Shown: positions 13,381 to 45,564, counted from the stretch's first letter. The stretch: DNA of 64,000 bases from Macrostomum hystrix (GCA_950097015.1 CATNEN010000001.1:19902001-19966000), one strand, 5' to 3'. Program-made: numbers and translations. The notes: a model not told the origin generated them from the sequence alone.

Positions 13381-13534
13381 AATTTTTCTTCTGTCATTAA
13401 ATTGAATTCTCGACATTTTGAGTTTGTTATCTCATAACGTCATAATGATATATATTAGTATGATAAATATTTTGCATAATATTCATTTAATTTTTGTTCT
13501 TCTCAATTTTCTAAAAAGAAGCTAATATAAAAAT

Positions 13535-21338: not shown

Positions 21339-22517
21339 TGATTATAACATTTGTTGCGAAATTTCTATAAGAAAAAACTGAATATTGTCCCACATGTCAC
21401 CCAATTTTCAACTCCTTCAGTGGGGCTCTGCCGCCTCTGTCTCCGTAGTTGGTTGGCTAAGAAGTTGATGTTAATCGAAGAAGAAATTTGAAATTCCCTC
21501 TGCACAACCTCGAATTATCTTCTGCTTTTTGTCATGCTTGGTCACTGCTGCGTCTGGGCTTGTTGGTGTCAGTTGGTGGTACACATTTAGCTAAAATGGT
21601 GGCGAATGGCGGGGGCAACAAAGGTCCGTAGATCAGATTACATGTAGATCAGATCAGATTAGATTTTGGATCAGATTAGGCACCCTAACCAAAATTACTA
21701 ATTGTGTTACGCTTTTGCTCTTTTCAGTGATTATTTAAAAATGGCCGATGGTAATTGGTTCCTATAATTCGGCTCCTGTCATGCTATATCACGCCGGCTT
21801 ATATTTTCTGGCCTTTTTCAGTGCAGAGTTTTTCAAACTTTTTTCAAAACTTTTTTTATCAATGCGGTCTATTAGTTTTGCTGCTTAGTCCTGTCTGCTT
21901 TGCTTTTTGACACACCTTGTTGTTGTCGTTGCTACGATCTTTCTAAAATGTTGCACCTTTATATTGTTAAAGCCGACTCGCTGAGTTTCGTTGCTAGCTT
22001 TTTTCTATTCTATTCTCTATACTTTATTAAGCATGATTTGTTGCTCGTCCGTTTCATCGTGACACAGTATACTTTAATATTCATATTTTTGGCGCCGATT
22101 TGTTAATAACGTGTGCCGTTCAATGTTGCTAACTAAAATAAGTTATTGATTTTTTACCCTACTACGCAACCTCTAATAATCTGCCGAAGCGTGAGTAGCA
22201 GTGTGAGTTTCCGCACCATATGTTGTTGTCCCAACGTTCGTTCCAAAAAGTTTGAGTCCGTTCTTTAACAATGCAACTGTCCCTTGAATTAATTCTGAGG
22301 TCCCTGTACATTAAAATAAGTTGCAAGTTGCAATAGTAATACAAAATATGCATCGGAAGGAAATGCCTGCAGACCCCAACAGTCGGAAGATTTTGCTCGC
22401 AGACCCCTACCCAATTTTAGGATTTCCGTATGAACAATTGGGAATTCCGCTACTCATGGCCCTCAAGGCCACACTCCAGACCCAACCGTCTATGGCTCTA
22501 GCATATTAACTGCATTG

Positions 22518-22672
22518 GCAAAATCTTCCGGAAGGAATTGCTTCTATGTAAATCAATAGGACGCAAAATCTTCCGGAAGGAATTGCTTCTATGTAAATCA
22601 ATAGGACGCAAAATCTTCCGGAAGGGATTGCCTCAATGTAAATCCATAGGAAGCAACATCTTCCGGAAGGAA
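22518..22672 (+). repeat. Four ~45-bp tandem repeats containing the palindrome CTTCCGGAAG
   Basis: gcaaaatcttccggaaggaattgcttctatgtaaatcaataggac units. Confidence 0.9.
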
Positions 22673-23336
22673 GTGCATGCATACGTATCGCAAAAAGGCT
22701 GAATGACCTTTTTTTTGATCTCCCTAGTGTATTTCTAAAAATAGAACACCGTAGGTGGTCATTTCGCGAAAATACGGACGCATATACCAAATGACCTTTT
22801 TTTGATCTCCGTAGTGTATTTCTATAATTAGAACAGCTAAGCCTATGTCTTTTCGCAATCGAGCACTGCGGAGCATGTAGTCGTGTTTGCGAAAGTGCTA
22901 ATATATATCACTGTGTCCTTCATGCACCATATTTCATTGTACTTTCGCGAAAATACCTTGCCCTGTATTAACATTGCTACTTCACTTTAAGCATTTTGCG
23001 AAAACATCATCTAATGTAACTAAAGTACTTAAAGTGCTTTTGCAAAAAAATACTGTTCTACCTTCGTTTGAATACGTATCCGTATTTCGCGAAAATACAA
23101 ACAATAATAGTAATCAGCAGTACTATCTCTATTCCCTCAATAAATCTTATTGTTCTGTTAGACTGAATTATGAAATTCAGTCTACTACCTACTACCTATT
23201 ACTACCTACTCTACTATGAGTAGACAATATAGCATCGTTGAATATATTATGAGTTCGATATTATGCTATACAGTTTTTTTTTCGCGAAAAGTGACTCATC
23301 AATATAAATAACCAGATAACACACCAATCTTTTGCA

Positions 23337-23419
23337 AGTGATCTGGCATGCAGGTCTAAAGCATTCATTTTTAGTAGCAGTGGCTCGGGTTCGAATCCCA
23401 GTCGGCACTACGCATTTTT
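23337..23419 (+). ncRNA. tRNA-like Pol III cassette, left copy
   Basis: TATAAATA upstream, A-box-like TGGCATGCAGG-TCTAA, B box GGGTTCGAATCCC, T-run. No anticodon stem, and an internal T5 may truncate this copy. Confidence 0.5.
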
Positions 23420-23966
23420 CTCAATTTAAAAAATCTGCTAATAATTTACTACTAATTACTACCAAACTACTTTTTGTGAACCCCCATTAATATTAACGTT
23501 TACGGCATTTACCTTCTTTTGATAATGCCTTTACTTTTATATAGGACACATGTCTTTTCGCGAAAATACCACTAGAAACAGTAATCATATTAACACAAAA
23601 GTATTTTCGCAAAAAGACTGCATCAACCTTTGAGAATATATATGTACTTTCGCGAAAATAACTCTGGAATAATCAACACTTCTTTAAGTGATTTTTCAAC
23701 ATATAGATAGACATTCAGAAATCAAATAATTATTCGTGTTTTTGTTCATTTTCTGTTCGAAACTACCTACTCTACTATGAGTAGACAATATAGTAGCAAC
23801 GTTAAATTTATTTAGCATAATAGGCCCATAGACAAGTGCAAATTTTTAGTTCATGGGACAAACCGTGAGTACAGTCGAAGCGTTATAACAGCGGTAGCCG
23901 AGCGCGCTCGGTAATAAATCGAACAATTTTTTCTGTCTGTCATATAAGCAAATCGAAGCGAACGAA

Positions 23967-26900
23967 ATGGACGACTGCCCTGTCTGCAATGCCGCAGTTG
24001 CGAAGAAGAATATCAGAAGGCACTTTGCTAGACAACATTCTGATTTCATTTCGAGTTTCGACTGGAGCGACATACCTGCAGATATGCGAGCCGCAGCGAA
24101 TGCGTCGGCTGATGCCAAGGCAAATGCTGTATGGAAGGTCCTCATACTCCGTCGGAAGGGAATTGATGTACTATACAAGCATTGTCCATATTGTGGTAAA
24201 TGTGTGCGGCAACTCAGCAAGCATATCGCACGACCTTGTAAAAGTAAACCGGCAATTACAGAGGCAGCAAATGCAACCCTTTCGTCAGGTGAGAGCGACG
24301 ATTCTTCGTCTGATTCGATTGACGCGGGTGCAAAAATTGAGCTGCCTATTGTCGTGTGTGCGTCGTCTGCGGGATCGTCTTCTGCTGGACAGTCCACTGC
24401 TGTACGCATTACCAACAGTGCATCGTCTGTCATACCGTCTACTTTAGTAGCACCGGTGTTGGCTAGTTTCGATCGTGCCGGACCATCTTACACGGCCGAT
24501 ATTGTCAGTCACGACATCGAGCGACTGCAAAACGAAACGAGTACGATGCCAGAATTCAATAATGCCAACGACAATGTGGCAGCGATCAGTAAGTGGTCTA
24601 AAATATTGTTGTACATGCCTTTAAATTTTTAAATTTACACATAAAGACAAAAAATAATCAACAAATATTTATAACTTTCCTGTCAAACAGAATTTATCAA
24701 TGGACTGCGTCTGAATGCGGCCGGCCTCAACGAGATTCTGCAGAAAGCCCACAACGCTGAGCATCCGCGCGTGTGTACTAGCTTGCAGAATCTGGTCAAT
24801 CTGACAGAAGCAATTCTCCAGTATACGTCAGACTATGTTCCGGTCGGAGTCACCAATGCTGTCAGTCATCGACAAGCAGAGACTCAGACCTCTAAATCTG
24901 ACGTGGAAAATACTGATGATTCTGTCAGTGAAGAGGAGCTTGTATTGCAACGGAGGCACAAGACGTCTCGGCTTGTTGTTTTCGACGGCCCAGACTACCA
25001 CGTTGCATCTGAACACATGTACAAGCAACTAGACAATGTCGGCGACATCTGGTTCAAGGGTCATTGCTGTGTAGAAGAGAACGCATCGCATGTTAGCCGT
25101 AGGAAAGCAATCCAGCGGAACTATCATGCTACAACTAGTCGTCTCCTACACGCAATCAATGTCACAGTCGAGATGTGGTTCATCAATCCAGCGCGCATCC
25201 AATTCGATCTGGACGAGATGGTGAAGCGCCATATCTGGAAACCATCGACTGTTGGACAGCGAATGAACGAGCTTCATAACATATTGAGCGGCGCGAAGAA
25301 GTTTCTAGCAGCCAACAACGACTTCGGTGCTCCTAGTGTTATGAACGCGTTCCAATTGACCTCGCCACCAGATGGATTGTTTGCCAACGTGCATGCCGAC
25401 ATTGTCAAGGCCGCGTCAGAATTGCCTGCCTGTCCTGACCCGCGCAAAGATGGTATTCTCTATCATCAGACTGCAGTATCTGGTCTGTTGACTAGCCGCA
25501 TCGAATCAATCATGGTGAGCAGTGTTGTTGTGTCGCATATTGTATACTATGTTAGTTGATATATCACGAACAATTGTAGAAGCTACTGCATGTACTTTCT
25601 CTTTCATAACCCTTTAACATGTACAGGCTTGCATTGGATTGATTCGTCAGCGGCAAGAGAATATCTATCACCTGCGCGATGACGAACGCCAGCTGTCCTA
25701 CACGGATAAGTTCCTGACCGCTGACGAATGGCGCATCATTCACAACCGGCTAGACTGCCTGATTGATATGGTCGCCAAACATTCGTGGTCTCATCTACCC
25801 GTGAAGGGCTACTGGGGTCGCATTGGACAATGTGCACGTCGAATGGCCAACGTCGTCGGCAAATGGAATACATTTATTATGCCGATCACGCGTGAACTGG
25901 CCTTCTTCTGTGCAGCAATTGTCCATGCCAATCGACTACGTCCTTGGGTCGCGATCCGGCGTTGCTATTTGGATGCTGCACTCAATAGCGGCGTATCAAC
26001 GTCCTCCACCATTGTCACAGTCCTGCCGCCTACCGAAGTGGCACACAAAAAGGGCGGTCGTGGTAAAGGTGCAAGCTGGACTGCGCCACGCAAAGTCGGC
26101 GAATGTCTACTGCAATGGATAGACAACTTTCTATTGCCATACTTCGCCGAGTGCAACATCCATGTCAGGCCAGGCAAATGTCTGCTGTTTCCTACGCATC
26201 GTGGCAAGCAGCGTGACTCGACAAGTTTCAGCACGCTTGTCAAGCAGGGCGCCGAGTTGGTCATCGATCGGCCCTATCGCATGGGCGATGGTCGTCGAAA
26301 TGTACTGTCGGCCTATGTGCACGCGCATCCCGACAAGCTAGACCAGCTGGTGCCTCTGTACGACACATCGCGCAACTGTGTCGTGAATGCGTATGGACGC
26401 CTGGCCAAACAGCAGGCCAATCTGATGGTCGCCGACGACGTCAGAGGATGCTTCGAGACATTCTGTCACAATCGGCCACTTGATCGTCGACATCAACGAC
26501 ATCCAACAGCCGAAAACGACACGAAGCGTCGTCGCTCTGCCGCCTGTAGCGTTGATCTGGACGCAACCAATTCATCGGCTGCATCTCCTCTACCTGCTGA
26601 TGACATTGTGATGCCACATAGTCAACGCACACGCAAGCGACGCACTCGACGGTCGTCCATTTGCAAGGCCACTGACAAGAAGCGACCTCGAATGTCGACA
26701 ATGCGACCCGCTACGGTTAGTCCTAGATGTTCAACAACGGACAACACCGAGTCGACAAAGCCGGCCATCGATTCAGCAACACCATCGCCTATTTCGTCTA
26801 CATCGTCTAGACGACGCAGTCTTAGTCAACCGCCGATGTTTGGAGCATCGGCTGGACAAGGCAACGTTCACGACGATATCGACGAAGAAGGTGATGATGG

Positions 26901-27027
26901 TGAACAACAGCACGTCAGCAATGACAATGAGACCAGCTCGGATTCTGAGCTACTCATGGTTCGTCGAACGGAATACAGGACGCGATCTGGGCGCCTGATC
27001 AGTTCGAGAACTAGACTGGACATCTGA
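23967..27027 (+). CDS. Zinc-finger/tyrosine-recombinase-like protein, 948 aa (exons 23967-24588, 24691-25514, 25627-27027)
   Basis: Both GT..AG introns (phase 1 and phase 0) join three ORFs in frame. N-terminal C2H2 and C2HC fingers. YR-like motifs NRLRP, HKK, LLFPT..GK, GDGRR and YDTS...NAY in the expected order and spacing. C-terminal TRSGR. Confidence 0.75.
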
Positions 27028-27429
27028 ATGCTCATATTGTCCCAGTCGTGTCATCTGAATTTATATGTGCTGATTGTCTGATTTGCCAAACTATTATCAA
27101 TTATCAATTGTGTCAATTGTGATACCCCCACTAATACCCGTCCCTTTACAACCGAGAATCTCATATGTTCTGTTTGTTGCTCTCTTATATATTGTTAAGA
27201 TGCTAATGATTGTCAACACTGTGATTATTTCGTTAGTAATTAAATAAATTGACAAATGAAATCATTTGATTATCATCTGATTAAACTGAGATTAAACTAT
27301 TCTCGTTTTCTTAAAAGCCGAAGATACACGAAAAAATCATTCGTGATTATTGACAATTAGCAGAGAAATATACTAAATTTGTCGATGGTAAAAAAGTACA
27401 AGTCACTTTGTCTGAGAATACGTATCTAC

Positions 27430-28040
27430 ATTCGCGAAAATACCATAATATGTAGCCATGCACACTACTTTAAGAACTTTTGCAAAAATACCGCCAACTA
27501 CCTGCGTTTAATAGCATAACAGTATTTTCGCGAAAATACCTTAAGATGTAGCCATGCACACTACTTTAATAACTTTTGCAAAAATACCGCAAACTACCTT
27601 TACTACCTGCGTTTAATAGGATAGCAGTATTTTCGCGAAAATACCATAATATGTAGCCATGCACACTACTTTAAGAACTTTTGCAAAAATACCGCCAACT
27701 ACCTTTGTTTAATAGCATAGCAGTATTTTCGCGAAAATACCTTAAGATATAGCCACGCATATAACCTACTTAATTAATAACTTTTGCAAAAATACCGCCA
27801 ACTACCTGTGTTTAATAGCATAACAGTATTTTCGCGAAAATACCTTAAGATGTAGCCATGCACACTACTTTAATAACTTTTGCAAAAATACCGCAAACTA
27901 CCTTTACTACCTGCGTTTAATAGGATAGCAGTATTTTCGCGAAAATACCATAATATGTAGCCATGCACACTACTTTAAGAACTTTTGCAAAAATACCGCC
28001 AACTACCTTTGTTTAATAGCATAGCAGTATTTTCGCAAAA
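27430..28040. repeat. ~100-bp tandem array with TTTTCGCGAAAA and TTTTGCAAAA palindromes (array 1)
   Basis: About six units of cagtattttcgcgaaaatacc...aacttttgcaaaaataccgc. Confidence 0.93.
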
Positions 28041-28368
28041 ACAGACACTATTTTTCATTTACAAGTATTCAATATAGTACATATTGTCTTTTCGCGAAAA
28101 AACTCATTCGTGAGTTTTGGCAATTTACAGAAATACACTAAATTTGTCTATGGTAAAAAGTCACTTTGTCTGAGAATACGTATCTGCATTTGCGAAAATA
28201 CCATAAGATGTAGTCACGCTACTTTTGCAAAAATACTGCCCTTACCTTCGCGAAAATACTGTATTTACTTTCCATTTAGAACTCTGCTTCCTATTCTAAT
28301 TCTACTTCTGCTAGTGTTAGACGCGCTGCTGTTGCACTCACGACATTGTTGGTTGTGTAGAACTCACG

Positions 28369-28788
28369 ATGAATACGCATCCTGTGGCGCTGTTCGGCTC
28401 GCCGGCCACCGTGGCACTCCTGGCCAGATGCGACATCGCCTGTCTGGCCCCGTTCCTGACTTACCGAGGACGATTGGAGCAGCTAACCTGCCTGCAGCGC
28501 CACTGCCCGACTGCTGAGCTGAACGTCACCCAGCTGCACACCCTGATGAAGAGCCTCCTGGACTGGCTGCTACAACACAAGACAGCTGCGGGCTACGAGA
28601 CCATCCTGGAGGTGACCTGCCTAACAGAGAACGAGGCCTTCGACTTGGCCGAGCTGCTAGGCCTGCTGGAGGACACATGTTTGGAGCTGCAGCACATTCT
28701 ACACGGCCTGGACTACTGGCGCGGCGTACAGCAAAGGGCTAGACTGCGAGAGTTGCTCCGGAGCCGCCGATATCGAATTGAGCAGTAA
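28369..28788 (+). CDS. 139-aa helical protein of unknown function (paralog A1)
   Basis: ATG-initiated, GC3-rich codons, alignable along its length to 33565-33945. Confidence 0.8.
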   Translation: MNTHPVALFGSPATVALLARCDIACLAPFLTYRGRLEQLTCLQRHCPTAELNVTQLHTLMKSLLDWLLQHKTAAGYETILEVTCLTENEAFDLAELLGLLEDTCLELQHILHGLDYWRGVQQRARLRELLRSRRYRIEQ

Positions 28789-29099
28789 CAGCAGCAGCAG
28801 CAGCAGCAGTAGCAGCACTAGTTTTAGGTAGACTTAATACAGCTAATTGTAGTTTCCTGTTCGCCGTTTAATTTATGCCAGCTATTTATTTAACCCAATT
28901 AATTCGCTCAAGCAAAAATACATGAGTGAACCTGTTGCAAGTTGTATTCGCGGCATGAATAATAATAAAATATAATGAAGTCAAGTCATATTTGGTTATT
29001 GATTACCATTAGATATAGTCATCATGAATACTTAAAGTACTTTCGCAAAAATATTGTCTTCTTATTGTCTTCAACCGCCGCATTATCGCCGCATGTCTG

Positions 29100-29402
29100 C
29101 ATTCGCGATAATACCATAAGATGTAGCCATGCACACTACATTAAGAATTTTCGCAAAAATACCGTCAACTACCTTTGTTTAATAGCATAGCAGTATTTTC
29201 GCGAAAATACCAAAGATGTAATCATGCACACTACTTTAAGAACTTTTGCAAAAATACCGCCAACTACCTTTGTTTAATAGCATAGCAGTATTTTCGCGAA
29301 AATACCATAAGATGTAGCCATGCACACTACTTCAAGAACTTTTGCAAAAATACTGCCCTTACCTTTGTTTATAGAGCATATCAGTATTTTCGCGAAAATA
29401 CT
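29100..29402. repeat. ~100-bp palindrome array 2
   Basis: About three units of the same repeat. Confidence 0.9.
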
Positions 29403-29601
29403 ATATATGGAAATAGCTTAGACCCAGTTGACGATGCCTGTCTATGTCTATGTGTCTGACTGCTGCTCTGTACAGGATATGAGCAGTGCTAGGTAAATAT
29501 ATGCGCGCGCGCACGCAAATCGATAATTAAAATTCAGCCACAACGAACACTCTGTCGATTATTCAGCAGGCTAGCCAGCGAACGACTATATTTAAGCTGC
29601 A

Positions 29602-31095
29602 ATGGAAGACAACAACGGACTCCGCTTCTGCCATTTCTGCGGCCAGCAAATCCGCGCCAATATGATGCGAAGACATTTTATAGAGGCGCATAAAGCTGTC
29701 CATGCCGAATTTGACTGGACAGTCCTACCTGTTGGTCAAAGGCCATCGCTATTCGCGTCGGTTAAGGAGCGTGGAAGTGCCGTCTGGAAGATGCTGCAAC
29801 TACAGCGGGCTGGTGTGGATGTCGCTGCCGGTGGACGTGTGCTAGCGTGTCCGCATTGCAACAAAATAACGTCCAACATGTTGCATCATCTATATAGATG
29901 TAAGCGGAATCCGCAGCGTCGCGTCGGTGGCCAACCAGCTCAGCCAGTGGCAGTGGCGGGAGCAGCGGCAATGGGCGAAGTGGTCCAGCTTGAACAACTG
30001 GATCCACTACCAGCTGTGGTCGGCGAGATTGTCGACTATATGCACGAGCGCTACATTGCCCGTCGACTGCCAGCAGCAGAGCAGCCAGCAGCAGAGCAGC
30101 CAGTAGCAGAGCAGCAAGTAGCAGAGCAGCCAGCAGCAGAGCAGCCATCAGCAGAGCAGTCAGCAGCAGAGCAGTCAGCAGCAGAGCAGCCAGCAGAAAC
30201 TATCATCATAGAAGATAGCGCAGCTGAATCAGGCATCATCTATGCAACAAGTACTGACGAGCCTGCTGAACATGTGAGCCAAGCGGACAGCGTGTCAATT
30301 GGATCAGTACGGCATCCAATTTGTACATCTACTCCGCTTAATCACAATGCGATTGAAGCAGCAGCAGAAACAATCCAATCGGATCACTCGCCAGTACCAT
30401 CGCCATCAATGCCAATGTTGCAAATTGAGCCAATCGGATCACCAGCGATGCCTATGTTGCCGATTCCAACTGTCGAGGTGCCGTATTTCGTTCCGGTGCC
30501 GCTACCTGTTTTTATTCCTGTCTGTGCGCCAAGAGTAACAACAGCGACAGTTGGTGTCAGTGCACAAAACGGTGTGACCGATGTTTCAATCGAAGCCAAT
30601 GTCAGCACGCAGTCAGTGTGTATTGGTACATCATCCGGTCACGGTGATGACATTGAAATGGCGCAGATTCTGCTCGACTTGATGCAACCTGCCGCTATGC
30701 AATTTCTGTCTACCAATACGGATTGTGTTGCTGCTGCTGCTGGATCGGATTTCGCTGCCCATTCCGAAGCAAGTCACATCGATGACATGTTTGATGTCGC
30801 AATGGAGATCATCATTGCTGATGTCAACAACGATTCGGATGAACAGTTATCTGATGTGACAGTGCCGCAAGGAGATGCCGATGCCGCAGCAGAATTGGTT
30901 CTGACCGCCGACCTTGACGACGATGTCGCAATGTCAATAAGTGATGTGCAGTCATCGCAATCGACTATACCTGCGACTGATGCTTTGCATGCATCTAGAC
31001 GCTCGTATTGTATATGCACACACAATATATTGACTACGACAGTGTCAAGACACGGCCGATTGATCAAGACGCGACAATGTCTGTGCGGCAATTGA
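29602..31095 (+). CDS. 497-aa double zinc-finger protein with acidic low-complexity body; recombinase-less paralog of 23967-27027
   Basis: CHFC..RRHFIEAH..FDW..AVWK..GVDV..CPHC..HLYRC aligns with the N-terminus of the YR-like protein. AAEQP repeats. C-terminal SRHGRLI parallels TRSGRLI. Confidence 0.82.
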   Translation: MEDNNGLRFCHFCGQQIRANMMRRHFIEAHKAVHAEFDWTVLPVGQRPSLFASVKERGSAVWKMLQLQRAGVDVAAGGRVLACPHCNKITSNMLHHLYRCKRNPQRRVGGQPAQPVAVAGAAAMGEVVQLEQLDPLPAVVGEIVDYMHERYIARRLPAAEQPAAEQPVAEQQVAEQPAAEQPSAEQSAAEQSAAEQPAETIIIEDSAAESGIIYATSTDEPAEHVSQADSVSIGSVRHPICTSTPLNHNAIEAAAETIQSDHSPVPSPSMPMLQIEPIGSPAMPMLPIPTVEVPYFVPVPLPVFIPVCAPRVTTATVGVSAQNGVTDVSIEANVSTQSVCIGTSSGHGDDIEMAQILLDLMQPAAMQFLSTNTDCVAAAAGSDFAAHSEASHIDDMFDVAMEIIIADVNNDSDEQLSDVTVPQGDADAAAELVLTADLDDDVAMSISDVQSSQSTIPATDALHASRRSYCICTHNILTTTVSRHGRLIKTRQCLCGN

Positions 31096-31393
31096 TTTCA
31101 TTCAATTCAATTGGCTCTGCGTGCAACTCGGATTGGGCATCTTTGACCGTCTACTGGCTGATTGGCTGGCTGGCTGGCTTGCTGAATAATCGACTGACTC
31201 ACTTATAATAAATTCAGACTGAACTTGATTTAATCGATTGATTTAATATACGTTGATATAAGAATAAACTAAAAAATATATACTTTTATGCGATTTGATT
31301 CCACTACTGTCTATTTTTATTACATAAATTTTAGTTTTAAGTCTACTTCATTATTCTCAGGTTTTGCGCAATATAAATACAAACATAATATCT

Positions 31394-32680
31394 CAGACTG
31401 ATCGATTACGATTACGTCGGTCTTGTAATAAGTCTCAACGCCAATGTCCATGACATAACCACCAGTCAGTTCATATTATTTTAAATGATAAAATAAATAA
31501 CCAAGATAAGAAGGCGTGTACTATTACCGATTAAACAAATAACAAACACTAAATTATTAAAATATTTATATTTTAAAGCGAATGACCGGGTGCAGAGCAT
31601 GCTGACTGCTCACATTGCCATTAGGCCGCACGTTAGCCATCTGAAAGCATTCAGAAAAAAGCTGAAATCTGACTAACTTGCGGCCAAGTGGCAATGTGTG
31701 AGCAATAGCCAGCTGATATCTTAGCAGCTTCAGTTGAAGGACGCGAAAATACATTATACTGTTCAACCAGTATGTGACATGTCGCAGTATGTGAACCACT
31801 GAACCGTCACACCGAATCACTATACACTACAATACCATAGCAGTCCTGTGTATTTATATTTTGAAACACGGGGATGTCCGGGTGCAGAGCAGGGCTGACT
31901 AATGCTCACATTATCATCGGGCCGTACGTTAGCCAGATGAAAGCTTTCAGAAAAAAACTGAAATCTGGCTAACGTACGGCCTGATGGTAACGATGGCTAA
32001 CGATACTGTCTTCCACAAAAGCCTTCTTACCTTTTTACCACTGGCACAATATGCACAGATCTCAAGTAGTCAACGATCATAGTCGTTTTGACTTAAGAAT
32101 ACGTATGTACTTTCGCGAAAAAAAAGTTGGCAGTGCGCAAAGACTAATTATAGATGAAATCTCTGGCTATATTCGCGAAAATACCATAGATATAGCCGCG
32201 CTACTTAAAAAACTTTTGCAAAAATACTGCATACAATATGAATTATATGCAGCCGTTTTTTTGTCTATGGCCAAAAACGTCTGACTGTATTTTCGAAAGA
32301 AAAAATGTGGATACGAAGAAAAAAAATCGCGAAAAAATCGAGCTGTACCAAGCAGATATGTCTTTGGTAAAATACGCACAATTTAATGCACTACATACCT
32401 ATAGTCTGCACGTTTTAATAGTGCATCTTGGCATATCTAGCAAGACGTAAGCGTATAATAATTTATTCGTTGTTTGTACTTTACTTTTTTAAACGAATCC
32501 GTTTTTATTAATATTTTCTTACATGAGAAACTTGTATAAACTTTACTTGAAATTATATACCAGACTGATCGATTACGATTACGTCGTTATTGTAGTAAGT
32601 CTCATCGCCAATGTACACCACATAACCAACAATCAGTTCATATTATTTTAATGATAAAATAAATAACCAAGATAAGAAGT
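31394..32680 (+). repeat. ~125-bp direct repeats (31394-31515 and 32561-32680) enclosing two hairpin-forming ~100-bp repeats
   Basis: cagactgatcgattacgattacgtcg...aataaccaagataagaag occurs twice. ccgggtgcagagca...ggcc occurs at ~31586 and ~31878. Confidence 0.85.
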
Positions 32681-32767
32681 TATGTATTTTGAGAACTATG
32701 AAACTATTTTAATAACAATTTTAAGCTTATTTTATTTACAAACAATAACAGAATTAATGCAAGATTG

Positions 32768-32908
32768 TCAGGGACTGATTGGGCAGATAGTCAGGGACTG
32801 ATTGGGCAGATAGTCAGCGGCTGATTGGGCAGATAGTCAGCGGCTGATTGGGCAGATAGTCGGACTGATTATAGCACACCAGATAGTCGGACTGATTATA
32901 GCACACCC
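32768..32908 (+). repeat. 23-bp tandem repeat (cagggactgattgggcagatagt) x4 plus a related duplication
   Basis: Direct repeats visible. Confidence 0.9.
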
Positions 32909-32979
32909 GGCTGCGGGATGAAAGATGGGTTTTAGGTTTCATTTAGTTTGTTAGCTCAGATGTTACCATGCATATGTGT

Positions 32980-33276
32980 TCATAAATATTCAAATGAAAG
33001 GAATCGAAATCTACTACTCACATAAGGATCCAGCCCTGCCGCTATGCGGCGGGCCCGGGCCATGCGGACCATGGCCGCCCGGACCCGCCGCATAGCGGCA
33101 GCCATCTCGGCCTCCTTCCCGCGACGTCCCGGCGTCCAGGCCTCCGCTGCCGCCACTGCTGTCGCTGCATCCATCGCTGCTCGCAATGCGCTTTCCAATT
33201 CGGCCGCAGCGGAGGCCAGTACGTGTTCCCGGAACGCCGCGGTGAAGGAGGGAAATTTGTTGCTATTGTTGCTCAT
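32980..33276 (-). CDS. Small Ala/Arg-rich helical protein, probably spliced after codon DPY
   Basis: ATG-initiated GC-rich ORF in an AT-rich context, with a GTGAGT donor at 33021. Downstream exon not identified. Confidence 0.55.
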   Translation of the reverse strand: MSNNSNKFPSFTAAFREHVLASAAAELESALRAAMDAATAVAAAEAWTPGRRGKEAEMAAAMRRVRAAMVRMARARRIAAGLDPYVSSRFRFLSFEYL

Positions 33277-33564
33277 GTCCGTGCTGTGTCGCTCGCTATC
33301 CTGTAGCTTCTGTCCGTATGGCGTTGGTTGTGGGCTGATTTCTTGGCCGAGAAAGATTTCTTGTTCTTAATACCCAGACTGGCCTGTATTCATTTGATTT
33401 GTCTGTGGACTGACTCACCTGTGTTCGATAAAATATACTCTATGGGGGCTTCTTATCGCATTAATATTAATATTAATATATCGCTTCTTATTAAACGATT
33501 AAAGTTTAGAATTTTTTTTAACAAAACTATTTTTTGCTTTACTTGATTTACTAACTGACTGAAC

Positions 33565-33945
33565 ATGTCGTTCATTGCCCATCAGATGCAGTTAGTACAA
33601 ATGTATCTTCAGCCGCGCGTATTTCAACTCTTTCTCAGCTGTCGCATAGATTGCATTGGCCGGTTCATAGCGCATCGAGGGTGCTTCGAGCAGCTACCTA
33701 GTTTGCAACGCGGTGTTCCAAATGCAGAGTACAACGCTAATGAGCTATGTTTATTATTACGGCGCACTCAACAATGGCTGCAAAAGCACCGGTCAGCAGA
33801 AGACTATCAGGCTGTCTTGTCCGTGACTGGTGTAAGAGACGATGAAGCACAAGACATCATCGAAGTGCTAGAGCTTTTAGAGGAAGCCCAAGCTGAACTT
33901 CAGCTCATCATACATGGAGTTCGCTATTGGTACATCGAACAATGA
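33565..33945 (+). CDS. 126-aa helical protein of unknown function (paralog A2)
   Basis: Shares C.I.C...F...RG..EQL..LQR..P.AE.N, WL..H..A..Y...L.VT.....EA.D..E.L.LLE....ELQ.I.HG..YW and terminal IEQ with A1. Confidence 0.8.
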   Translation: MSFIAHQMQLVQMYLQPRVFQLFLSCRIDCIGRFIAHRGCFEQLPSLQRGVPNAEYNANELCLLLRRTQQWLQKHRSAEDYQAVLSVTGVRDDEAQDIIEVLELLEEAQAELQLIIHGVRYWYIEQ

Positions 33946-34458
33946 ATGCTGTAAAATACAGAATTTATATGCAGAATTTTATGTATTATAGTTTACACGT
34001 TTATTTTTGCTCTCGCGACTTTGCAAATCAGACTAATTGTAGAATGGCACGATTATTTGTTCAACCAATGAAATTCTATATATATTTATACTCTATATGT
34101 ATTGGTGAAATTTAATAAAAACCGTATTAATAATTACCGGTTGACTACCTGCACACATCTGTGTTCGCGTATTAATATTTTATTACTGACTGATCTCATC
34201 AGTCGTCTGATTATGATTAATGGTAAACGCGACAATATATTGTCAATAGTGACGGCAAACTCTTATGCTTTGAATATACCACGTGAAGGTGAACGAGAGC
34301 TAGTGTATATAAAAGTACTTTAAAACATTTGCAGGCATCATGAACTGTCGATTTTAAATACTCTGATGTATGAATCAAATACATGAAACTTCTAATTATA
34401 TTAATCAGTTAATTAATTTCATTATAAGCAATGGCAACAGTGCTTAACAAAACAATTG

Positions 34459-34917
34459 CTACATGTCATTCAAATCTGGGTTATTTGCAGCACGATTGGC
34501 ATCGCCGCGCTCTCTTTCAGTGCCAGTGCCGCCATTGTTACTGTTGCTGCTGCTGCTGCTTATAATTGGTGACTGTATATCGGTCACTTGCGCATGCTGC
34601 GGCAGTTGCAATTGGCCGGCTAAATCACGTGTCGGATTGGCGTTCACAATTCCAAATCTCTGATTGTAAATGCGCACGACACCTGGACGATGCAATACGT
34701 ACTGAACACGTTGACGTGAAGGCAGAATAGCAAAATCCGAGTCTGAACTACTATCCGAGCTGTGCCTTCGTCGACGTCGCTCAGTGCCAATCACGACATC
34801 TGTGCTGCTACTGACGGTAGGGCACGAGATCGGTTTGTCGTTGCCAGAGTTGTGATCCTCTCTGTCGATATCTCGATCTCGATCTCCGCCATTGTGCCGC
34901 CCACCCAGTGATGACAT
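34459..34917 (-). CDS. 152-aa mostly disordered protein with basic cluster (RRRRRH) and Ser/Asp tract
   Basis: ATG-initiated GC-richer ORF bounded by AT-rich flanks. No recognisable domain. Confidence 0.55.
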   Translation of the reverse strand: MSSLGGRHNGGDRDRDIDREDHNSGNDKPISCPTVSSSTDVVIGTERRRRRHSSDSSSDSDFAILPSRQRVQYVLHRPGVVRIYNQRFGIVNANPTRDLAGQLQLPQHAQVTDIQSPIISSSSSNSNNGGTGTERERGDANRAANNPDLNDM

Positions 34918-35152
34918 GTTGTAGTTTTTTTTATTTGAAACAATAATTAAGAATCTAAAATGTGTAAATAAGTTACGCCACTTACCTTAGTAAAGTAACC
35001 AACTAAAAACCCTATTGCTAGTCTATGGTAACAAGCTTGCTGATAATCTTATGTGATTGGGAATATGTAATCAATGCAGTTGAAACTTTGGACAATTAAT
35101 GAAGTAAATAAAACAAGTTCAACATTTTAAATACTGCCCCCATTGTCTCGCC

Positions 35153-35833
35153 ATGCCTACATCAACATCATCATCAGGGCCAACTCTAAACGATGCGGAA
35201 AAATCCAACTGTCACGACGATGACGTTGAGCTGAATGAAGAGCCAGGCTATGATGACTACGGGTATGATGAAACATACAATTCAACATACAGTTTTGTAT
35301 TCGGCCTGGCAGACGACCATTTGTTATACGCCGTAGCCGAAGAGGTCGAAGCGGCGATGGCAACCAATTGCTTTGACCCAGCTGATGACGAGCTTTAGTA
35401 TGCAGCAGCTGAAGAGGCGGAGGCGTCAGCAGCAGCGGCAGCGATGGCAGCCAGTAGCTGCTTATTTGACCCAGCTGACGACTGCCTATTGTATGCCGCA
35501 GCTGAAGAGGCAGAGGCGTCAGCAGCAGCGGCAGCGATGGCAGCCAGTAGCTGCTTATTTGACCCAGCTGACGACTGCCTATTGTATGCCGCGGCTGAAG
35601 AGGCAGAGGCGTCAGCAGCAGCGGCAGCGATGGCAGCCAGTAGCTGTTTATTTGATCCAGCTGACGACTGCCTATTGTATGCCGCAGCTGAAGAGGCAGA
35701 GGCGTCAGCAGCAGCGATGACAGCCAGTAGCTGTACATTTGACCCAGCTGACGACTGCCTATTGTATGCCGCAGCTGAAGAGGCGGAAGCGTCAGCAGCA
35801 GTAGCGATTGCAATTGAGGAGGCACAAGTTTGA
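35153..35833 (+). pseudogene. 226-codon acidic tandem-repeat protein (six DDxLLYAxAEExE motifs) with one in-frame TAG at 35396-35398
   Basis: ORFs 35153-35398 and 35444-35833 are in frame. The TAG sits where sister repeats have TTG (Leu). ~93-bp units. Confidence 0.75.
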
Positions 35834-36279
35834 AATGATATTATAAAAAATACATTCACTATGATTAATTACAGTGATATTATAAAGCTTCTGATTATCA
35901 ATACTATTTGATATCTACATATGTGTTGTGTTGTAAATGATTGAAAATACACTAATCTTTTCGCGAAAATACCATCACCAACAATCATCAGCACTATGTT
36001 AAGCATTATTGTTTGTATGTTAGTACTCAAAGCAATTTCGCAGTTTGTATTTGTTTTAGAACATGTTCTTTCGCAAAAATATGTTCATCATCGTATCGTT
36101 AGTATTTTTGCAAAAAAACTGTCATTATTTTTCATTCACAGGTATTCAATACAATATATAGATAATATATAGTCTTTTCGCGAAAAAAATGCACTCATGA
36201 CTCTTGGCAATTTGCAGAAATACTAAATATGTCTATGGTTAAAAAAGTACAATATACTTAGTCTAATAATATGCATGTA

Positions 36280-37262
36280 TTTTCGCGAAAATACCTTAAG
36301 ATATAGCCACGCACACAACTTCAAGAACTTTTGCAAAAATACCGCCAACTACCTTTGTTTAATAGCATAGCAGTATTTTCGCGAAAATACCATAAGATAT
36401 AGCCACGCATATAACCTACATTAATAACTTTTGCAAAAATACCGCCAACTACCTTTGTTTAATAGCATAGCAGTCTTTTCGCGAAAATACCTTAAGATAT
36501 AGCCACGCATATAACCTAATTTAATAACTTATGCAAAAATACCGCCAACTACCTTTGTTTAATAGCATAGCAGTATTTTCGCGAAAATACCTTAAGATAT
36601 AGCCACGCATATAACCTAATTTAATAACTTATGCAAAAATACCGCCAACTACCTTTGTTTAATAGCATAGCAGTATTTTCGCGAAAATACCTTAAGATGT
36701 AGCCATGCACACTACTTTAATAACTTTTGCAAAAATACCGCAAACTACCTTTACTACCTGCGTTTAATAGCATAGCAGTCTTTTCGCGAAAATACCATAA
36801 GATATAGCCACGCATATAACCTACATTAATAACTTTTGCAAAAATACCGCCAACTACCTTTGTTTAATAGCATAGCAGTATTTACATGAAAATACCTTAA
36901 GATATAACCACGCATATAACCTAATTTAATAACTTATGCAAAAATACCGCAAACTACCTTTACTACCTGCGTTTAATAGCATAGCAGTATTTTCGCGAAA
37001 ATACCTTAACATATAGCCACGCATATAACCTACTTTAATAACTTTTGCAAAAATACCGCCAACTACCTTTGTTTAATAGCATAGCAGTCTTTTCGCGAAA
37101 ATACCTTAAGATGTAGCCATGCACACTACTTTAATAACTTTTCCAGGTCACAGCCGCAAACTACCTTTACTACCTGCGTTTAATAGGATAGCAGTCTTTT
37201 CGCGAAAATACCTTAAGATGTAGCCATTCACACGACTTTAATAACTTTTGCAAAAATACCGC
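36280..37262. repeat. ~100-bp palindrome array 3 (about ten units)
   Basis: TTTTCGCGAAAA near 36280, 36376, 36476, 36576, 36676, 36781, 36990, 37090 and 37197. Confidence 0.95.
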
Positions 37263-37645
37263 TATTTACTTTCGGATAAAAGTCGTTATTTTATTTTCGC
37301 GATAACACCTGTAAATGAATTTTATTAATTAATACTTTGACACTTTGCATATACCTTCGTTTGAATGCGTAATACTATATATAGTAATAAGAAATATGAT
37401 TTTTTTGCAACAGAAGTAGCAATTACCTACTTCACAACAATAAAAGCTCAAAACTGAGCATATAAATTGATTTTATTTGTATGACTAATTATAAAATTGC
37501 ATACAAAAACAGTATGAAACAGTAAAAAATATAAAAAAAACAGCTGAAAGACTGACTGAAGGACCGAGTAAAAATATAGTCGATAAAATAGCAGCATGCA
37601 GGCAGTTTGGTGTAAAAAAACCTGCTAACAGCACCGTCTTGTCGC

Positions 37646-40361
37646 TCATACTCGCCGGTCCGGGTGATCGCCAAACACATTGCGTATTGGGTGGCATTGT
37701 CCATCGCATTGGTAGTCGGCACTGAGGGAATGACCAATGAAGATGGCAACTACCGGACGCTTGTGCCCATCAGGTGTCGGTTCTAATCGGCGCTGAAAGT
37801 CCATCGAATACGCACTGACCGGAGCATGCCCAGCAAGCACTAACAGTCGATTGAGCCAAGAGACGTGTCGAATAGCCTTGTATTTAGCATTGACTTCAAA
37901 AGTGTCTCCATTGACCAAACGAAGTAGTGTGCACATGACTTCAGATGTGTCATCAAACAGTTGCGGGCGTAGCTCGTCAATAAACATGGCAGTGTGTATA
38001 GTCTCGCAGAGCTTGTCAAACATAAACGTGTTAGACCGCTTCTGCACCTGGATATTCAGCACTTTCGTAGAACCGAGATGGCTTTGCACAGAGTGGGTCT
38101 TCCCAACGCCAGACGGGCCGTATAGATAGACGACACCAGTTGGCAATTGCAACGCGCTGCACACAGCCTTTACAGTTGGGCACACGTTGGTGGCGGCGGC
38201 GATCAACCGGGGAACATGAGCGACGGCGGCATCAAATACTTGAACAGCAGTAGCAGCGGAAGCAGCAACATCAGCAGCAGCAGCAGAGACCTGTTGTGTT
38301 GTTAGGTAGGTTCGCATACAATTAATTAATTAATTGTCCAAAAGTAATAATTATTTGAATTAAAACAACAGCAAAAATTCAATGATCAATACTCGTACGT
38401 GTGCTAAAAAATGTCATGTATTATAATATTTTGCATACCTCCAGCTGAGTAGGCAAGGTCGTCCTCGCATAGTCGGCTGTTGCAGCATCATCAGCAGCGG
38501 CGGCGGCGGCAGCGGCAGTAGGGCGACAGTTTTGGCAACCAGCTAGCACCTCTGTTGCTATTACGCGTTTCATCTGAGTCACCTTAAAGTAATCGCTGAG
38601 CTCTTGTCTGACACGAAAGTGTTCGAACATGAAGCCACTATCTAGCAAAGGCTCAGTAGATGACGTCTCATGAGCAGCAACCCAGCAAAAGGCCTTGGTC
38701 AGCAAGCTGCACTCTTGAGTAGAAACGCGGAAAAGAGCTGGAAACTCGTCCGTACTGGTAACTAGCTTAATTGCACTTGACGCACTGCGTACACCAGACA
38801 CTGTCATTCTACACATTGTAGGATGCAGGTAGGCCGAAGCTTCCGCAGATTCCATCAAAAGGGCATGCAGTCCGCAGTAAACAGTGTAACCATCTTCTGG
38901 TTGGCGCAGGTTCAGGAACATCAGCAAACCATTGGGATGATTCGGAGCTCCTAAACATTCACGGATTGACATGTTGTATTTCTGCTGACGACGCGCTCGG
39001 ATTTCTTCGCTGGTCAGCATGTCAACCTGAATACATGATGTTGCGCCGATGGCAAACTGTGCACATGGAGCTACCAATTCATCTTCTAGAAACGCCTTGA
39101 ATTTTTCCACATCGCTCGAGATGAATGCAATCTCTATAAGATGTAGCGTCCTTCTAGTCATAAGAACCGACCTGCCCTCTGCTGTTAAAGAGGCGTAGTC
39201 GGTAATTGGAGCTCGAGGACATAGCCGTAGAAGTGGTGATGTCGAACGACACAACGCATATTCATCGGCTATCGGAGCAAATGCCACGCCACCAACTTCT
39301 TGCTGCTGCCGTTCACGCCGTTGTATCTGCTGCCGCAGCGGCTGCCGCCACTGCTGCTGCTGCGGCTGTTGCTGCGGTTGTTGCTCTCGCTGTTGATGCT
39401 GCTGCTGCTGCTGCGATTGCTGCAGTCGTCCCGACTGTTGCGCTTTTGGTTGAGAAGCGTCGACATACGCTGGAGAGAATACAGCGCGAACTGGTTCATC
39501 AGCATCGGATGTTGTCCCATTCTCGATGACAGACATTGCCGGTGTAGAGCGAGGCGCATAATCTGGCGAAGTCGGACAGGCACCAAGTGCGGCACTATTT
39601 TTAGGAATAGTCGACTCGCCATTAACGCGCAATAATTCTGCCACCTCTGTTTTGTACTTATCATCGACTAGCTGCGATGACAAGGCTGAACTATTAGAGG
39701 CCGTCAAAACAGGGGCAGTATTAGACTCTACATTGTCTGTATTGTTCGTCCACTCGTCCACAATCTCCAGCTGTACGTCGTCTGCTAGCAAGTCGTCCGC
39801 TGAGTCATCTTCAGATGATAGCACTTTAGGCGTGGACTCTATGCGATCAGCATGGTCGCCGGCGCCACAAATTGGTTGGGCAACAATAACCAGAGGCTGT
39901 CGCATGGCTACTAGAGATCCAACGCCAGTGTCTTCAGCATCAGACGACGATGAATTGCTAGACGAAGCATCCAAATCGACAACTGTACGCGTCCGCTTGC
40001 GTAGAGTCGATCGGGCATATCGACGCTTCCGAATTGCACTCGATGGGACAGTCTGCTTCGGCTGCTGCTGCTTCGGCTGCTGCTGCTGCTGCTGCTGTTT
40101 CGACTGCTGCTGCTGCTGTATTACTGCAAGGCGGGGAACAGTGAAGGCAGCCGATGCCCGACCAGCCGTTCCTGCCATTGCTGTAAATGATGCCGATGAT
40201 GCTTGCACACTCGGTCTAGATGCTGCGCCAGTAGGACGATCGGTTGACTGCTGAGATCTAAAGTAATCCACGATCATAGTCTGGCGTAGACCATTAGCAT
40301 CCGGTGTAGCAATGCTGGCATCCACACGAGCCTTCTTTCCACGGCCACGAAATGCTGACAT
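37646..40361 (-). CDS. Rep-like protein, ~855 aa: PIP box, disordered N-terminus, degenerate HUH-like domain, SF3 helicase (exons 40361-38439 and 38290-37646)
   Basis: Phase-0 intron 38438-38291 (GTATGC...CTAAC...CAG) joins two ORFs in frame. Walker A YLYGPSGVGKT, Walker B MFIDEL, B' EVNAKYK, atypical motif C LVLAGH, Arg-finger-like FQRRL. Confidence 0.8.
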
Positions 40362-40830
40362 TTCAAAATTCAAGTCGAGGCGTAGGAATTAACTCGTAAT
40401 TACTCGGTCGGTCAGTCAGTCGGTCACAAAGTAGATGTTAAGCGCGCTCAGTCTTACATAGGTCACTTTTGCGACTGTACTCAACTGTAGTTCTAGGTTT
40501 GACTACAGACAAAACTTTTTTTTCGCGAAAATTCACTCGTGTGTATTGCAATCCCCAATTCGCAAATACTAATAGATAAAATTTCTATGGCTATTTCGCG
40601 AAAAAACCATTACAAGTATATAGACTAGCCATGTTAATTCAATTACTTTCGCAGTATACTTTACTACTTCAGGTGCAATCGGCCCTACTATAAGTAATAT
40701 TGCAGTAGTAAGTAAACATTAATAATAATGGGGATCCACACAAAAAGTGTGGATTCCAATATAAAAAAACAGATTCCTAGTAAAAATATTTTTTCATTTC
40801 TAGTATAATGTTGCCCATTTTTTTTTAAAT

Positions 40831-40913
40831 AAAAAAATGCGTTGGGTGAATGGGATTCGAACCCGAGCCACTTGTACTAGCGACAATGCATTAGACCTGC
40901 ATGCCAGTTCACT
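40831..40913 (-). ncRNA. tRNA-like Pol III cassette, right copy 1
   Basis: Minus strand reads tataaata...gtgaac-TGGCATGCAGGTCTAATGC...GGGTTCGAATCCC-attcac...T7. Confidence 0.55.
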
Positions 40914-41099
40914 AACAATTAAAGTGTGTGTTGTCTGGCTATTTATATTGCTTTTCTTTTCTTAACTGGCGTATTCGAGCAAAAGTACGTTAATAATAAT
41001 GGGGATCCACAAATAGTGGGGATTCGAATATAAAAAAATAGATTTCTAGTAAAGATTTATTTTCATTGATAGTAAAATGTTAGCTGTTTTTTTAATAAC

Positions 41100-41182
41100 A
41101 AAAAAGCGTAAGGCTGACCGGGATTCGAACCCGAGCCACTGGTATTAGAGAGAAATGCCTTAGACCTGCACGCCAGATCACT
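41100..41182 (-). ncRNA. tRNA-like Pol III cassette, right copy 2 (tandem duplicate, ~270-bp unit)
   Basis: Minus strand reads tataaata...gtgatc-TGGCGTGCAGGTCTAAGGC...GGGTTCGAATCCC-ggtca...T-run. Confidence 0.55.
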
Positions 41183-41649
41183 AACAATCAAATAGTGTGT
41201 TATCTGGCTATTTATATTTATTTTCTTTCGCATGTTCGAGTTTTAATGACGTTTGTCTGCAAATGGTGAAATCTTGACCACTAATACAATTTTTTTTCTA
41301 ACAGACTGATAATTTTTATTCAGCGAATATAGAGAGTAGTTCAGGAACGTTTTGCAAAAATACTACCCTTACCTTTGTTTTGGAAACATATCAGTATTTT
41401 TGATTATATAAATAAACTTTTCGCGAAAATACCAGCATTTGAGTCTATTCACAGCCAAGTCAGTTTTCGAATCGACATCCATCACATATATGTACGGATA
41501 TGTGATTCAGGCAGCCGATGCTGCTTGCCCACTCGGTCTATACGTATAAACTAGAGTTTACGGACTTAGAGAATTTTATCATGTCAGTGATAAAATTTTC
41601 GACCGTCCCCAGAGCTTAGTTGGTGTGGCTGGTGGAGTAAATGCAGGTA

Positions 41650-42045
41650 TTATATATATACTCTAAAGAAAGGTGCGCGAGCTGTTTTTTCGCAACTTGA
41701 CTTCGTCGTCGTCGTCGGCATATGGGGGCTAGTATATAGCCGGGCTGGCTAAACCCCGGGCGATTCGATTCTATTTTTAGCCTACGGCGCACCTTTCTTA
41801 AGAGTATATATATACAAGCTGACTCGTGTGTATTTAAATGGCAGCCTATTGAAGTCTATGGGGCACGCAAGCCAGTATATACTCTTAAGAAAGGTGCGCC
41901 TTAGGCTAAAAATAGAAACACCATGCATTTTCGGTCATCTATTATAGTAACTAGTCGTCATCAAGCCCGATCTAGATATAATCTCCGTCATATTGCCTCC
42001 AGCGAAAATATACAGCGCGCACCTTTCTTTAGAGTATATACTAAC
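41650..42045. repeat. Nested imperfect palindrome with four alternating copies of TATATACTCTWAAGAAAGGTGCGC
   Basis: Forward ~41655, reverse ~41788, forward ~41876, reverse ~42017. The inner ~43-bp arms (41769-41811 and 41875-41917) are near-perfect inverted repeats. Confidence 0.9.
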
Positions 42046-42089: not shown

Positions 42090-42225
42090 TTCGAATCCCA
42101 TTCACCCAACGCATTTTTTTATTTAAAAAAAATGGGCAACATTATACTAGAAATGAAAAAATATTTTTACTAGGAATCTGTTTTTTTATATTGGAATCCA
42201 CACTTTTTGTGTGGATCCCCATTAT
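42090..42225 (+). repeat. Near-identical inverted copy of ~40725-40861 (3' part of the tRNA-like cassette and its flank)
   Basis: ttcgaatcccattcacccaacgc...gtggatccccattat is the reverse complement of the 40.7-40.86 kb segment. Confidence 0.9.
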
Positions 42226-45548: not shown

Positions 45549-45564
45549 TGAGAGCAGGTCAGCG

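Follow-up and report, generated by a model that had tools for sequence, protein, structure and literature searches.

A protein with a predicted tyrosine recombinase fold, apparently lacking the two catalytic histidines, in a probable mobile element of the flatworm Macrostomum hystrix

Can a protein that lacks both histidines of the tyrosine recombinase (YR) signature still belong to the superfamily, and what would such a protein do in an animal genome? The question is raised by a 64,000-nucleotide stretch of Macrostomum hystrix DNA (GCA_950097015.1 CATNEN010000001.1:19902001-19966000), referred to here as the window, with positions counted from its first letter. A previous sequence-only reading of this DNA proposed a divergent YR catalytic domain at 25627..26460. 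The motifs behind it are real, although position 25627 proved to be a splice acceptor rather than the start of a gene, and the predicted domain lies within exon 3 of a gene encoding 948 amino acids (aa). Exon 3, at 25627-27027, closes this spliced gene, whose product is a zinc-finger protein with a predicted YR fold. The earlier reading did not include the two exons upstream or the helicase-bearing block in which the gene sits. The best reading of the locus is that this protein is the integrase or resolvase of an undescribed virus-like mobile element.

A spliced gene with conserved catalytic residues

The frame that begins at 25627 is open through 27027, with 11-26 stops in each of the other five frames. 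Joined to two upstream exons, including across the inferred intron 1, it gives a coding sequence of 622 + 824 + 1401 nt (Table 1), and all three exons align in order to a single 1084-aa protein from Macrostomum lignano, P0010. Intron 2 is absent from a contig of the public run X5 (record 17), in which 24695-25513 is fused to 25626-26268, and is retained unspliced in a contig of run X1 (record 1). In the vicinity of intron 1 one X5 contig departs from the window at 24588 and another begins at 24695. Transcription of the gene is inferred from the spliced joint in X5, a run that is not on record as RNA; runs X9 and X10, which contributed small shares, were not used for habitat or expression. The zinc-binding motifs predicted in exon 1, CxxC...HxxxH and CxxC...HxxxC, correspond to zf-C2H2-type Pfam matches below cut-off, while the second, conserved half of exon 2 is, from its position, likely the core DNA-binding domain. 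Among single-letter exon differences 6 of the 14 listed are synonymous (from 40 of 431 rows, with three adjacent differences excluded), too few for selection to be shown.

The motifs NRLRP, HKK, GDGRR, YDTS and VVNAY noted in the sequence-only reading are present where it had placed them. In exon 3 numbering ANRLRPW starts at 101, AHKKG at 139, MGDGRRN at 219, LYDTS at 244 and VNAYG at 253, and we propose that R103 is Arg-I, K141 the catalytic lysine, R223 Arg-II and Y256 the nucleophile. The same motifs assign G220 to the His-II position and T247 to the His/Trp-III position. The gaps from Arg-I, Arg-II and His/Trp-III to the tyrosine are 153, 33 and 9 residues, the first of which agrees with the earlier estimate of about 150 aa; the corresponding values are 131, 32 and 9 in XerD, and 151, 32 and 9 in Cre (in the numbering of the part of PMC4381057 available).

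A search of 1.84 billion representatives returned four matches at E<=0.001, consisting of two M. lignano clusters and the fragments P0005 and P0006. The clusters comprise seven entries in all, with five distinct versions of a 164-aa core. Six of the seven (P0003, P0004, P0007-P0009 and P0011) are annotated as 'Ras-GEF domain-containing protein'; these entries are fragments of the recombinase-like family, and the full-length member, P0010, displayed no Ras-GEF match in Pfam. Word-based searches found no homolog among 469 and 7993 candidates, blanks that carry little weight because relatives exist. No relative of the recombinase was found in IMG/VR viral contigs, metagenome contigs or plasmids, phages and prokaryote genomes not being part of that search.

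In an alignment of the window protein with P0010 and P0006, 26 of 145 columns are invariant, including K141, D221, R223, R224, T247, S248 and Y256. Similarly, 32 of 120 columns, R103 and K141 among them, are invariant when P0005 takes the place of P0006. R103, K141, R223 and Y256 are retained in every homolog that covers them, down to P0006 at 24% identity, as expected if the residues picked out by the sequence-only reading are the catalytic set. That reading had left the arginine of NRLRP unspecified: the first (R103) is conserved, whereas the second is replaced by Leu or Gln in homologs. Its view that GDGRR stands in place of HxxR and YDTS in place of GHS holds for the family, since the His-II position is Gly in the window protein and Ser or Met in homologs, and the His/Trp-III position is Thr both here and in the two homologs covering it. 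Judged from these alignments, the conservation of the motifs exceeds chance.

The replacement of the histidines may be compatible with catalysis. In Cre the H289A and W315F mutants still recombine, and the histidine is rated less critical than the invariant arginines; the available part of the same source gives no recombination rate for R173A, K201A and R292A (PMC4381057). Catalytically dead YR derivatives of animals, the DUF3504 genes, have lost the tyrosine and the second arginine according to the portion of PMC3212892 available, in contrast to the window protein and its homologs, which retain both residues. A double change to Gly and Thr exceeds what the Cre mutants cover; enzyme activity of the window protein is considered likely.

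Predicted fold and family tests

A structure model built from a five-sequence alignment was of medium confidence (predicted local distance difference test score, pLDDT, 58; predicted template modelling score, pTM, 0.57), while a single-sequence model (pLDDT 36) was discarded. Foldseek ranks 1-18 against the PDB were all Cre, Xer, integrase or vaccinia topoisomerase structures (E 0.04-0.37). In the VIA search ranks 1-12 among 48,161 chains were YRs or topoisomerase IB (Z 7.2-5.2, root-mean-square deviation (rmsd) 3.4-6.2, 109-145 residues aligned). The best match had Z 7.2 and rmsd 3.9 over 145 residues, and the first unrelated row Z 5.2 over 59 residues. As a VIA Z below 8 may reflect a common arrangement, the weight rests on the consistency of the ranking. 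The VIA alignments stop at model residue 219, opposite Cre 288 and XerD 243, one residue before Cre H289 and XerD H244; this places G220 at the His-II position, in agreement with the motif reading. A structure search of BFVD gave no row at E<=0.001, with most of the named top rows being integrases or VLF-1.

Language-model features were compared through a protein atlas. Among the neighbours of the window domain, phage-integrase clusters (0.94) stand sixth and eighth, preceded by clusters without a name. Of the 30 named-cluster matches to the P0010 domain, 19 fall in PF00589-bearing clusters and five in ResT/TelK clusters; the other six have no common family, and one of these is mostly chordate. 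The recognition score was 2288 against the tool's guide value of 2300, and Pfam-bearing matches shared fewer than 170 features.

Profile tests placed the protein outside named families. There was no profile match to PF00589 or to the XerC-D families, nor to DUF3504 or GCR1_C in Pfam at E up to 5 (P0002, P0010, P0005 and P0006), and a Crypton was rejected on the latter result. A Starship captain was likewise rejected, as the Pfam profile for DUF3435 gave no match. The protelomerase family PF16684 had no Pfam match, and ResT/TelK were not among the 50 VIA rows listed. A Pfam match to NHR2 (E 0.001, 22 aa) was dismissed as short and below threshold. The fold and family comparison suggested by the sequence-only reading ranks YRs and topoisomerase IB first in structure and offers no Pfam match for Crypton, DUF3435 or protelomerase; its designation of a divergent YR is supported by the Foldseek, VIA and atlas rankings, in which YRs are at or near the top, and not by any family profile. 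We conclude that the protein very probably adopts a YR fold, a view that combines residue conservation, Cre- and XerD-like spacing, two structure searches on one model and the language-model neighbours, no single score being strong.

The block surrounding the gene

The gene lies in a ~20-kb repeat-marked block (about 22.5-42.2 kb) that is probably a mobile DNA element (Table 1). All 24 exact copies of the 12-bp palindrome TTTTCGCGAAAA present in the window fall inside 23279-41429, against 0.01 expected by chance, and the observed/expected CpG ratio, 0.83 and 0.75 in the two flanks, rises to 1.11 in 22.5-42.2 kb. Many variant contigs of run X1 map to 22.3-42.3 kb, where none of the 30 bins is left uncovered, and past ~42.4 kb coverage shifts to much deeper host repeats. 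Joints in X1 link the left tRNA-like unit to the right-hand units on opposite strands (depth 134 and 392, 85% likeness). The variants and joints suggest several diverged copies with more symmetric arms, although alleles or pooled animals could account for part of the pattern. At 22748 and 22841 X1 contigs share the window sequence up to those points and then continue in diverged, look-alike letters, a hint that further subfamilies exist in which the left-end region is conserved. When the two end regions are compared, no exact match exceeds a 12-mer, and 9 of 200 shuffles produce one of this length. No description of this element was found in the literature searched, Repbase, subscription papers and supplements lying outside that scope.

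Table 1. Features of the probable element and of the recombinase gene within it
Feature	Position	Strand	Remarks
Recombinase gene, exon 1	23967..24588	+	two predicted zinc-binding motifs and low-complexity linker; P0010 match E 4e-20
Intron 1	24589..24690	+	GT-AG, phase 1; inferred from fitting frames, no joint listed
Recombinase gene, exon 2	24691..25514	+	35% over 182 aa to P0010, E 2e-31
Intron 2	25515..25626	+	112 nt, GT-AG, phase 0; contig joint
Recombinase gene, exon 3	25627..27027	+	YR-like catalytic domain at ~residues 28-280 of exon, then low-complexity tail; 44% to P0010, E 4e-78
Exon 3 codons	R103 25933, K141 26047, G220 26284, R223 26293, T247 26365, Y256 26392	+	
139-aa orphan open reading frame (ORF)	28369..28788	+	paralog of 33565-33945, 40% over 112 aa, E 4e-30
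497-aa ORF	29602..31095	+	N-terminal zinc-binding module in common with recombinase gene, 34% over 96 aa, E 1e-18
126-aa orphan ORF	33565..33945	+	paralog of 28369-28788
Superfamily 3 (SF3)-like helicase gene, last exon	37646..38290	-	Walker A GPSGVGKT, Walker B FIDE, B' and C-like motifs
Helicase gene, upstream exon	38439..40364	-	low-complexity start, then globular domain; inferred 148-nt phase-0 intron
Approximate left end, not fixed	22500..22850	.	45-bp tandem repeat, 47-bp direct repeat, 12-mer at 22735
Palindrome TTTTCGCGAAAA, 24 exact copies	23279..41429	.	mostly ~100-bp tandem arrays at 27.4-28.0, 29.1-29.4 and 36.3-37.3 kb
Left tRNA-like unit	23298..23503	+	GGTTCGAATCCC B-box-like motif, T-rich end; ~80% like right-hand units, inverted
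Two tandem ~270-bp tRNA-like units (at 40.8 and 41.1 kb)	40716..41228	-	
Nested imperfect palindrome	41651..42042	.	four arms, 22-bp core, order + - + -, spacing 107, 59 and 116 bp
Inverted copy of 40725-40861, 99% identical	42090..42225	+	starts at TTCGAA of tRNA-like unit; approximate right boundary

A second gene, on the minus strand, encodes a likely helicase; its last exon shares 45% identity with M. lignano P0015 (E 3e-33). Matches to PF00910 (E 0.006) and DUF5906 (E 0.025) are both below cut-off, and IMG/VR yielded weak P-loop matches only. The longest-spanning of these, 24% over 112 aa, is to the helicase of L020:1-2128, a small contig with Rep-like and capsid-like ORFs; it is one of eight viral loci matched, the other seven of which were not examined. 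The protein is called SF3-like because it aligns weakly over motifs A to C with PF00910, DUF5906 and L020. The end of the upstream exon matches the start of P0015 (E 0.001, pairwise), and the domain that it encodes has no family match in Pfam, the PDB or the L020 Rep. Its GLHAL motif, which we take to resemble that of HUH nucleases, had suggested such an enzyme, a candidate that found no support in the same comparisons.

The block has about nine candidate genes and holds a few short ORFs; the other ORFs scanned are short or of low complexity. Neither Pfam (12 ORFs/exons of the block) nor PHROGs revealed a capsid, packaging ATPase, protease or polymerase. A DIRS/Ngaro retrotransposon was rejected, as no match to reverse transcriptase or RNase H was found in Pfam among the block ORFs scanned, and so was an endogenous nimavirus, given the ~20-kb size and about nine candidate genes, none of which matched white spot syndrome virus (WSSV)-like core genes. 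At 35153-35833 a 93-bp repeat of coding appearance, present in 4.7 copies, comes after an acidic 81-aa ORF and lies in a different frame from it, and the non-coding middle contains ~130-bp direct repeats (31385-31513/32552-32679, 90%; 31563-31685/31851-31981, 81%).

The tRNA-like units are possibly RNA polymerase III small RNA genes of the element, a view based on their sequence features. Besides the B-box-like motif and T-rich end they display an upstream TATA-like stretch, and their GGTCTAA loop presumably resembles that of tRNA-Leu/Ser. They were not called by ARAGORN at default settings and had no Rfam match; at a lowered threshold the three units appeared among 17 mostly noisy calls, which is no evidence alone.

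The window as a whole appears eukaryotic and rich in repeats. Outside the block, a 2.3-kb repeat with two copies 84% identical flanks the element (18124-20350 and 43279-45507), and run X1 is very deep from 43.2 kb on. Helitron-type pieces on the minus strand lie at 45549-46094 and 46907-47542 (Pif1 2B domain, E 3e-19; STPR repeats, E 2e-11). Satellites of alternating 23-bp and 18-bp arrays occupy 4317-14668, 50296-51047 and 56165-56614, with up to 280 copies of the 23-bp unit.

Candidate sites, possible role and comparison with known systems

The sequence-only reading had suggested, as a conceivable target of the recombinase, the palindrome at 41.65-42.05 kb. The palindrome is real: its four 22-bp arms, against 0 expected, are symmetric about ~41844, and in the predicted fold the outer arms (1 and 4) pair with each other, as do the inner arms (2 and 3) (z = -10.7, 0 of 100 shuffles as good). 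The arms are 59-116 bp apart, however, the centre being a 59-bp non-palindromic spacer between the inner arms, while YR core sites have arms of 11-13 bp around 6-8 bp in the available part of PMC3212892. A lox-like arm scan found 21 sites in the block, including 41481-41506 and 41572-41597, whose spacers measure 6 and 8 bp. IMG/VR contains no exact copy of the arm motif. The 12-mer at 22735 recurs only in the inner arms, at 41769 (-) and 41906 (+), although it was chosen post hoc. In a single X2 contig of depth 4.2 position 41811 is joined to 41876 on opposite strands, whereas an X3 contig keeps the window orientation; the X2 joint is a weak hint that the central 59-bp spacer is reversed, that is, of flipping. 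Without a lox-like site, the nested palindrome is only a candidate target of the recombinase; besides it, the candidate cut sites are the 12-mer common to the two ends and the TTCGAA found in the tRNA-like units. Read from the opposite strand, every arm consists of a GC-rich box followed by a TATA run, and the arms may serve as paired promoters or for loading the helicase rather than for recombination.

We put the probability that the YR-fold enzyme is active and serves the mobility of the ~20-kb probable element at roughly 55%. In this role the domains of exons 1 and 2 would bind sites near the element ends. R103, K141 and R223 would hold the phosphate that Y256 attacks, and the product would be a 3'-phosphotyrosine bond of the kind made by Cre and XerD, here formed in the absence of the two histidines. 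Through strand exchange the element would be freed as a circle, or its copied ends resolved, and it would be inserted at another place. The SF3-like helicase might replicate the free form, starting from the palindrome arrays or the nested palindrome. A wider proposal, which we regard as possible though doubtful, is that the block represents a new class of capsid-less, self-copying flatworm DNA elements between Crypton transposons and small DNA viruses, moved by a histidine-free YR, copied by an SF3 helicase from palindrome origins and carrying tRNA-like small RNA genes of their own.

Several observations weigh against an active recombinase that moves the block. The two histidine positions are replaced together (Gly/Ser/Met and Thr), which is harsher than the single mutations of Cre. 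The homologs represent only three independent lineages, two of them fragments. There is no YR match in Pfam, PHROGs, NCBIfam or PDB sequences, and hhalign against a profile of bacterial and phage YRs (12 sequences from 15 loci chosen, three not included) gave a probability of 0.46% and E 0.13. No Foldseek match reaches E 0.001, and the best VIA Z of 7.2 is within the tool's inconclusive range. Structural matches to YRs extend mainly over residues 20-222, so the part with R223 and Y256 is not placed: residues 220-280 are unaligned to YRs in most VIA rows, and model pLDDT is below 50 at 99-109, 219-230 and 244-246. At the level of the element, neither a target-site duplication nor a fixed boundary was found, nor an end-to-end joint among the 15 of 52 joints listed; read depth does not equal copy number; no lox-like site (arms of at least 9 bp, spacer 0-12) lies within 41651-42042; and the M. 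lignano recombinase and helicase homologs were compared as separate proteins.

Coincidental motifs and fold matches in a protein unrelated to YRs would account for the uniformly negative profile tests, and the modest model scores and the atlas values under the guide are in keeping with this. It is nevertheless very improbable, as the YR superfamily comes first or close to first in Foldseek, VIA and the language-model features alike, and the register of the structural alignments matches that of the motifs. A YR-fold protein with little or no catalytic activity, retained by the element to regulate DNA or package it by binding the TTTTCGCGAAAA arrays, is improbable rather than far-fetched. It would explain the loss of both histidines and the occurrence of the zinc-finger module in a second ORF without a recognizable catalytic domain; the third VIA match is the phage regulator MrpR, and dead YR derivatives do exist in animals as DUF3504 genes (PMC3212892, from the part available). 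In those proteins, however, the tyrosine and second arginine were lost, whereas here they persist to 24% identity.

Flp is known to flip a segment of the 2-micron plasmid, and protelomerase targets are palindromic with a paired centre. An active YR-fold enzyme specific to the nested palindrome could similarly resolve a replicated hairpin end or flip the central segment, leaving integration to host repair. This proposal, which partly overlaps the active-enzyme reading preferred above, draws on the strength and symmetry of the palindrome, the X2 contig with a reversed spacer beside the X3 contig in window orientation, the inverted copy of 40725-40861 lying beyond the palindrome and the ResT/TelK share of the P0010 atlas matches (5 of 30). 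We consider it unlikely, as the X2 contig is single and shallow and hairpins cause library and assembly artefacts, the non-palindromic centre and lack of a PF16684 match do not favour a protelomerase, the left end has no mirror structure and the recombinase gene is 15 kb away at the other end. An integrated true DNA virus, either polinton-like or from a new family, likewise has only a limited chance of being the source of the block; its capsid genes would be too divergent to recognize or located elsewhere, and the YR would be its ordinary integrase. This reading is compatible with the enzyme assignment. The block size fits, and the combination of YR, SF3 helicase and inverted repeats is a known polinton-like module in viruses whose capsid genes were at first missed by HHpred (PMC11296320, as far as its available text goes), while nimaviral YRs carry a C2H2 domain and can be multi-exon (PMC10871703, likewise). 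Against this view, the ORFs scanned show no capsid, packaging ATPase, protease or polymerase match, and IMG/VR holds no relative of the recombinase and only the weak P-loop matches to the helicase.

Should the active-enzyme reading hold, the protein would be a natural tyrosine recombinase working on R-K-R-Y alone, and thus a direct test of how dispensable the catalytic histidines are, as well as a member of a eukaryote-adapted recombinase family overlooked by current profiles. With the block, the large virus-like mobile DNAs of animals would gain a kind not described so far, and the relatives in M. lignano, a laboratory model flatworm, make such elements open to study.

Comparison with known systems places the recombinase as follows; the literature on element families is cited from the portions available. 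The predicted catalytic fold and the order and spacing of R, K, R and Y are those of Cre, XerC/D/H and integron integrases. The window protein differs from these in having Gly, Ser or Met at His-II and Thr at His/Trp-III across its family, no profile match, a zinc-finger module at the N terminus, an intron-containing gene and a long tail of low complexity. By its predicted fold and residues it is Cre/Xer-like, outside every family profile tested and without both histidines.

Polinton-like viruses (PMC11296320, bioRxiv 10.64898/2026.06.19.733378) share with the block a size of ~20 kb, inverted repeats near the ends and the pairing of a YR with an SF3 helicase, the SF3 call here resting on sub-threshold matches and motifs. 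In contrast to them, the block has no recognized capsid, A32-like ATPase, protease or polymerase/primase, and it contains spliced genes, palindrome arrays and tRNA-like units. Its helicase has a weak best spanning match that is CRESS-Rep-like and not D5-like. Because polinton-like virus capsids can escape detection, a true virus remains a rival. Cryptons (Kojima and Jurka 2011, PMC3212892; PMC13465315) are likewise eukaryotic YR elements, thought to be circle-borne, with ends that are hard to define. They have 4-6 bp terminal direct repeats and an R-H-R-Y tetrad, whereas the window protein is without the H and without DUF3504/GCR1_C; the word 'helicase' is absent from the main text of the two Crypton papers, as available. 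PEVE/PIVE and DENSOV_HM (PMC3198968) resemble the block, by description, as virus-like entities of planarians and Hydra with a parvovirus-NS-like replication protein, some of them integrated; no recombinase is mentioned in the part of that source available. Nimaviruses are far larger than the ~20-kb block and carry WSSV-like genes, none of which was recognized here. Their YRs are, by description, those of endogenous DNA elements of invertebrates, with a C2H2 domain and in some cases several exons, and there too only five of the seven key residues were located (Kawato et al. 2023, PMC10871703). Of the systems compared, it is these nimaviral YRs that the architecture of the window recombinase appears to resemble most, a likeness by description.

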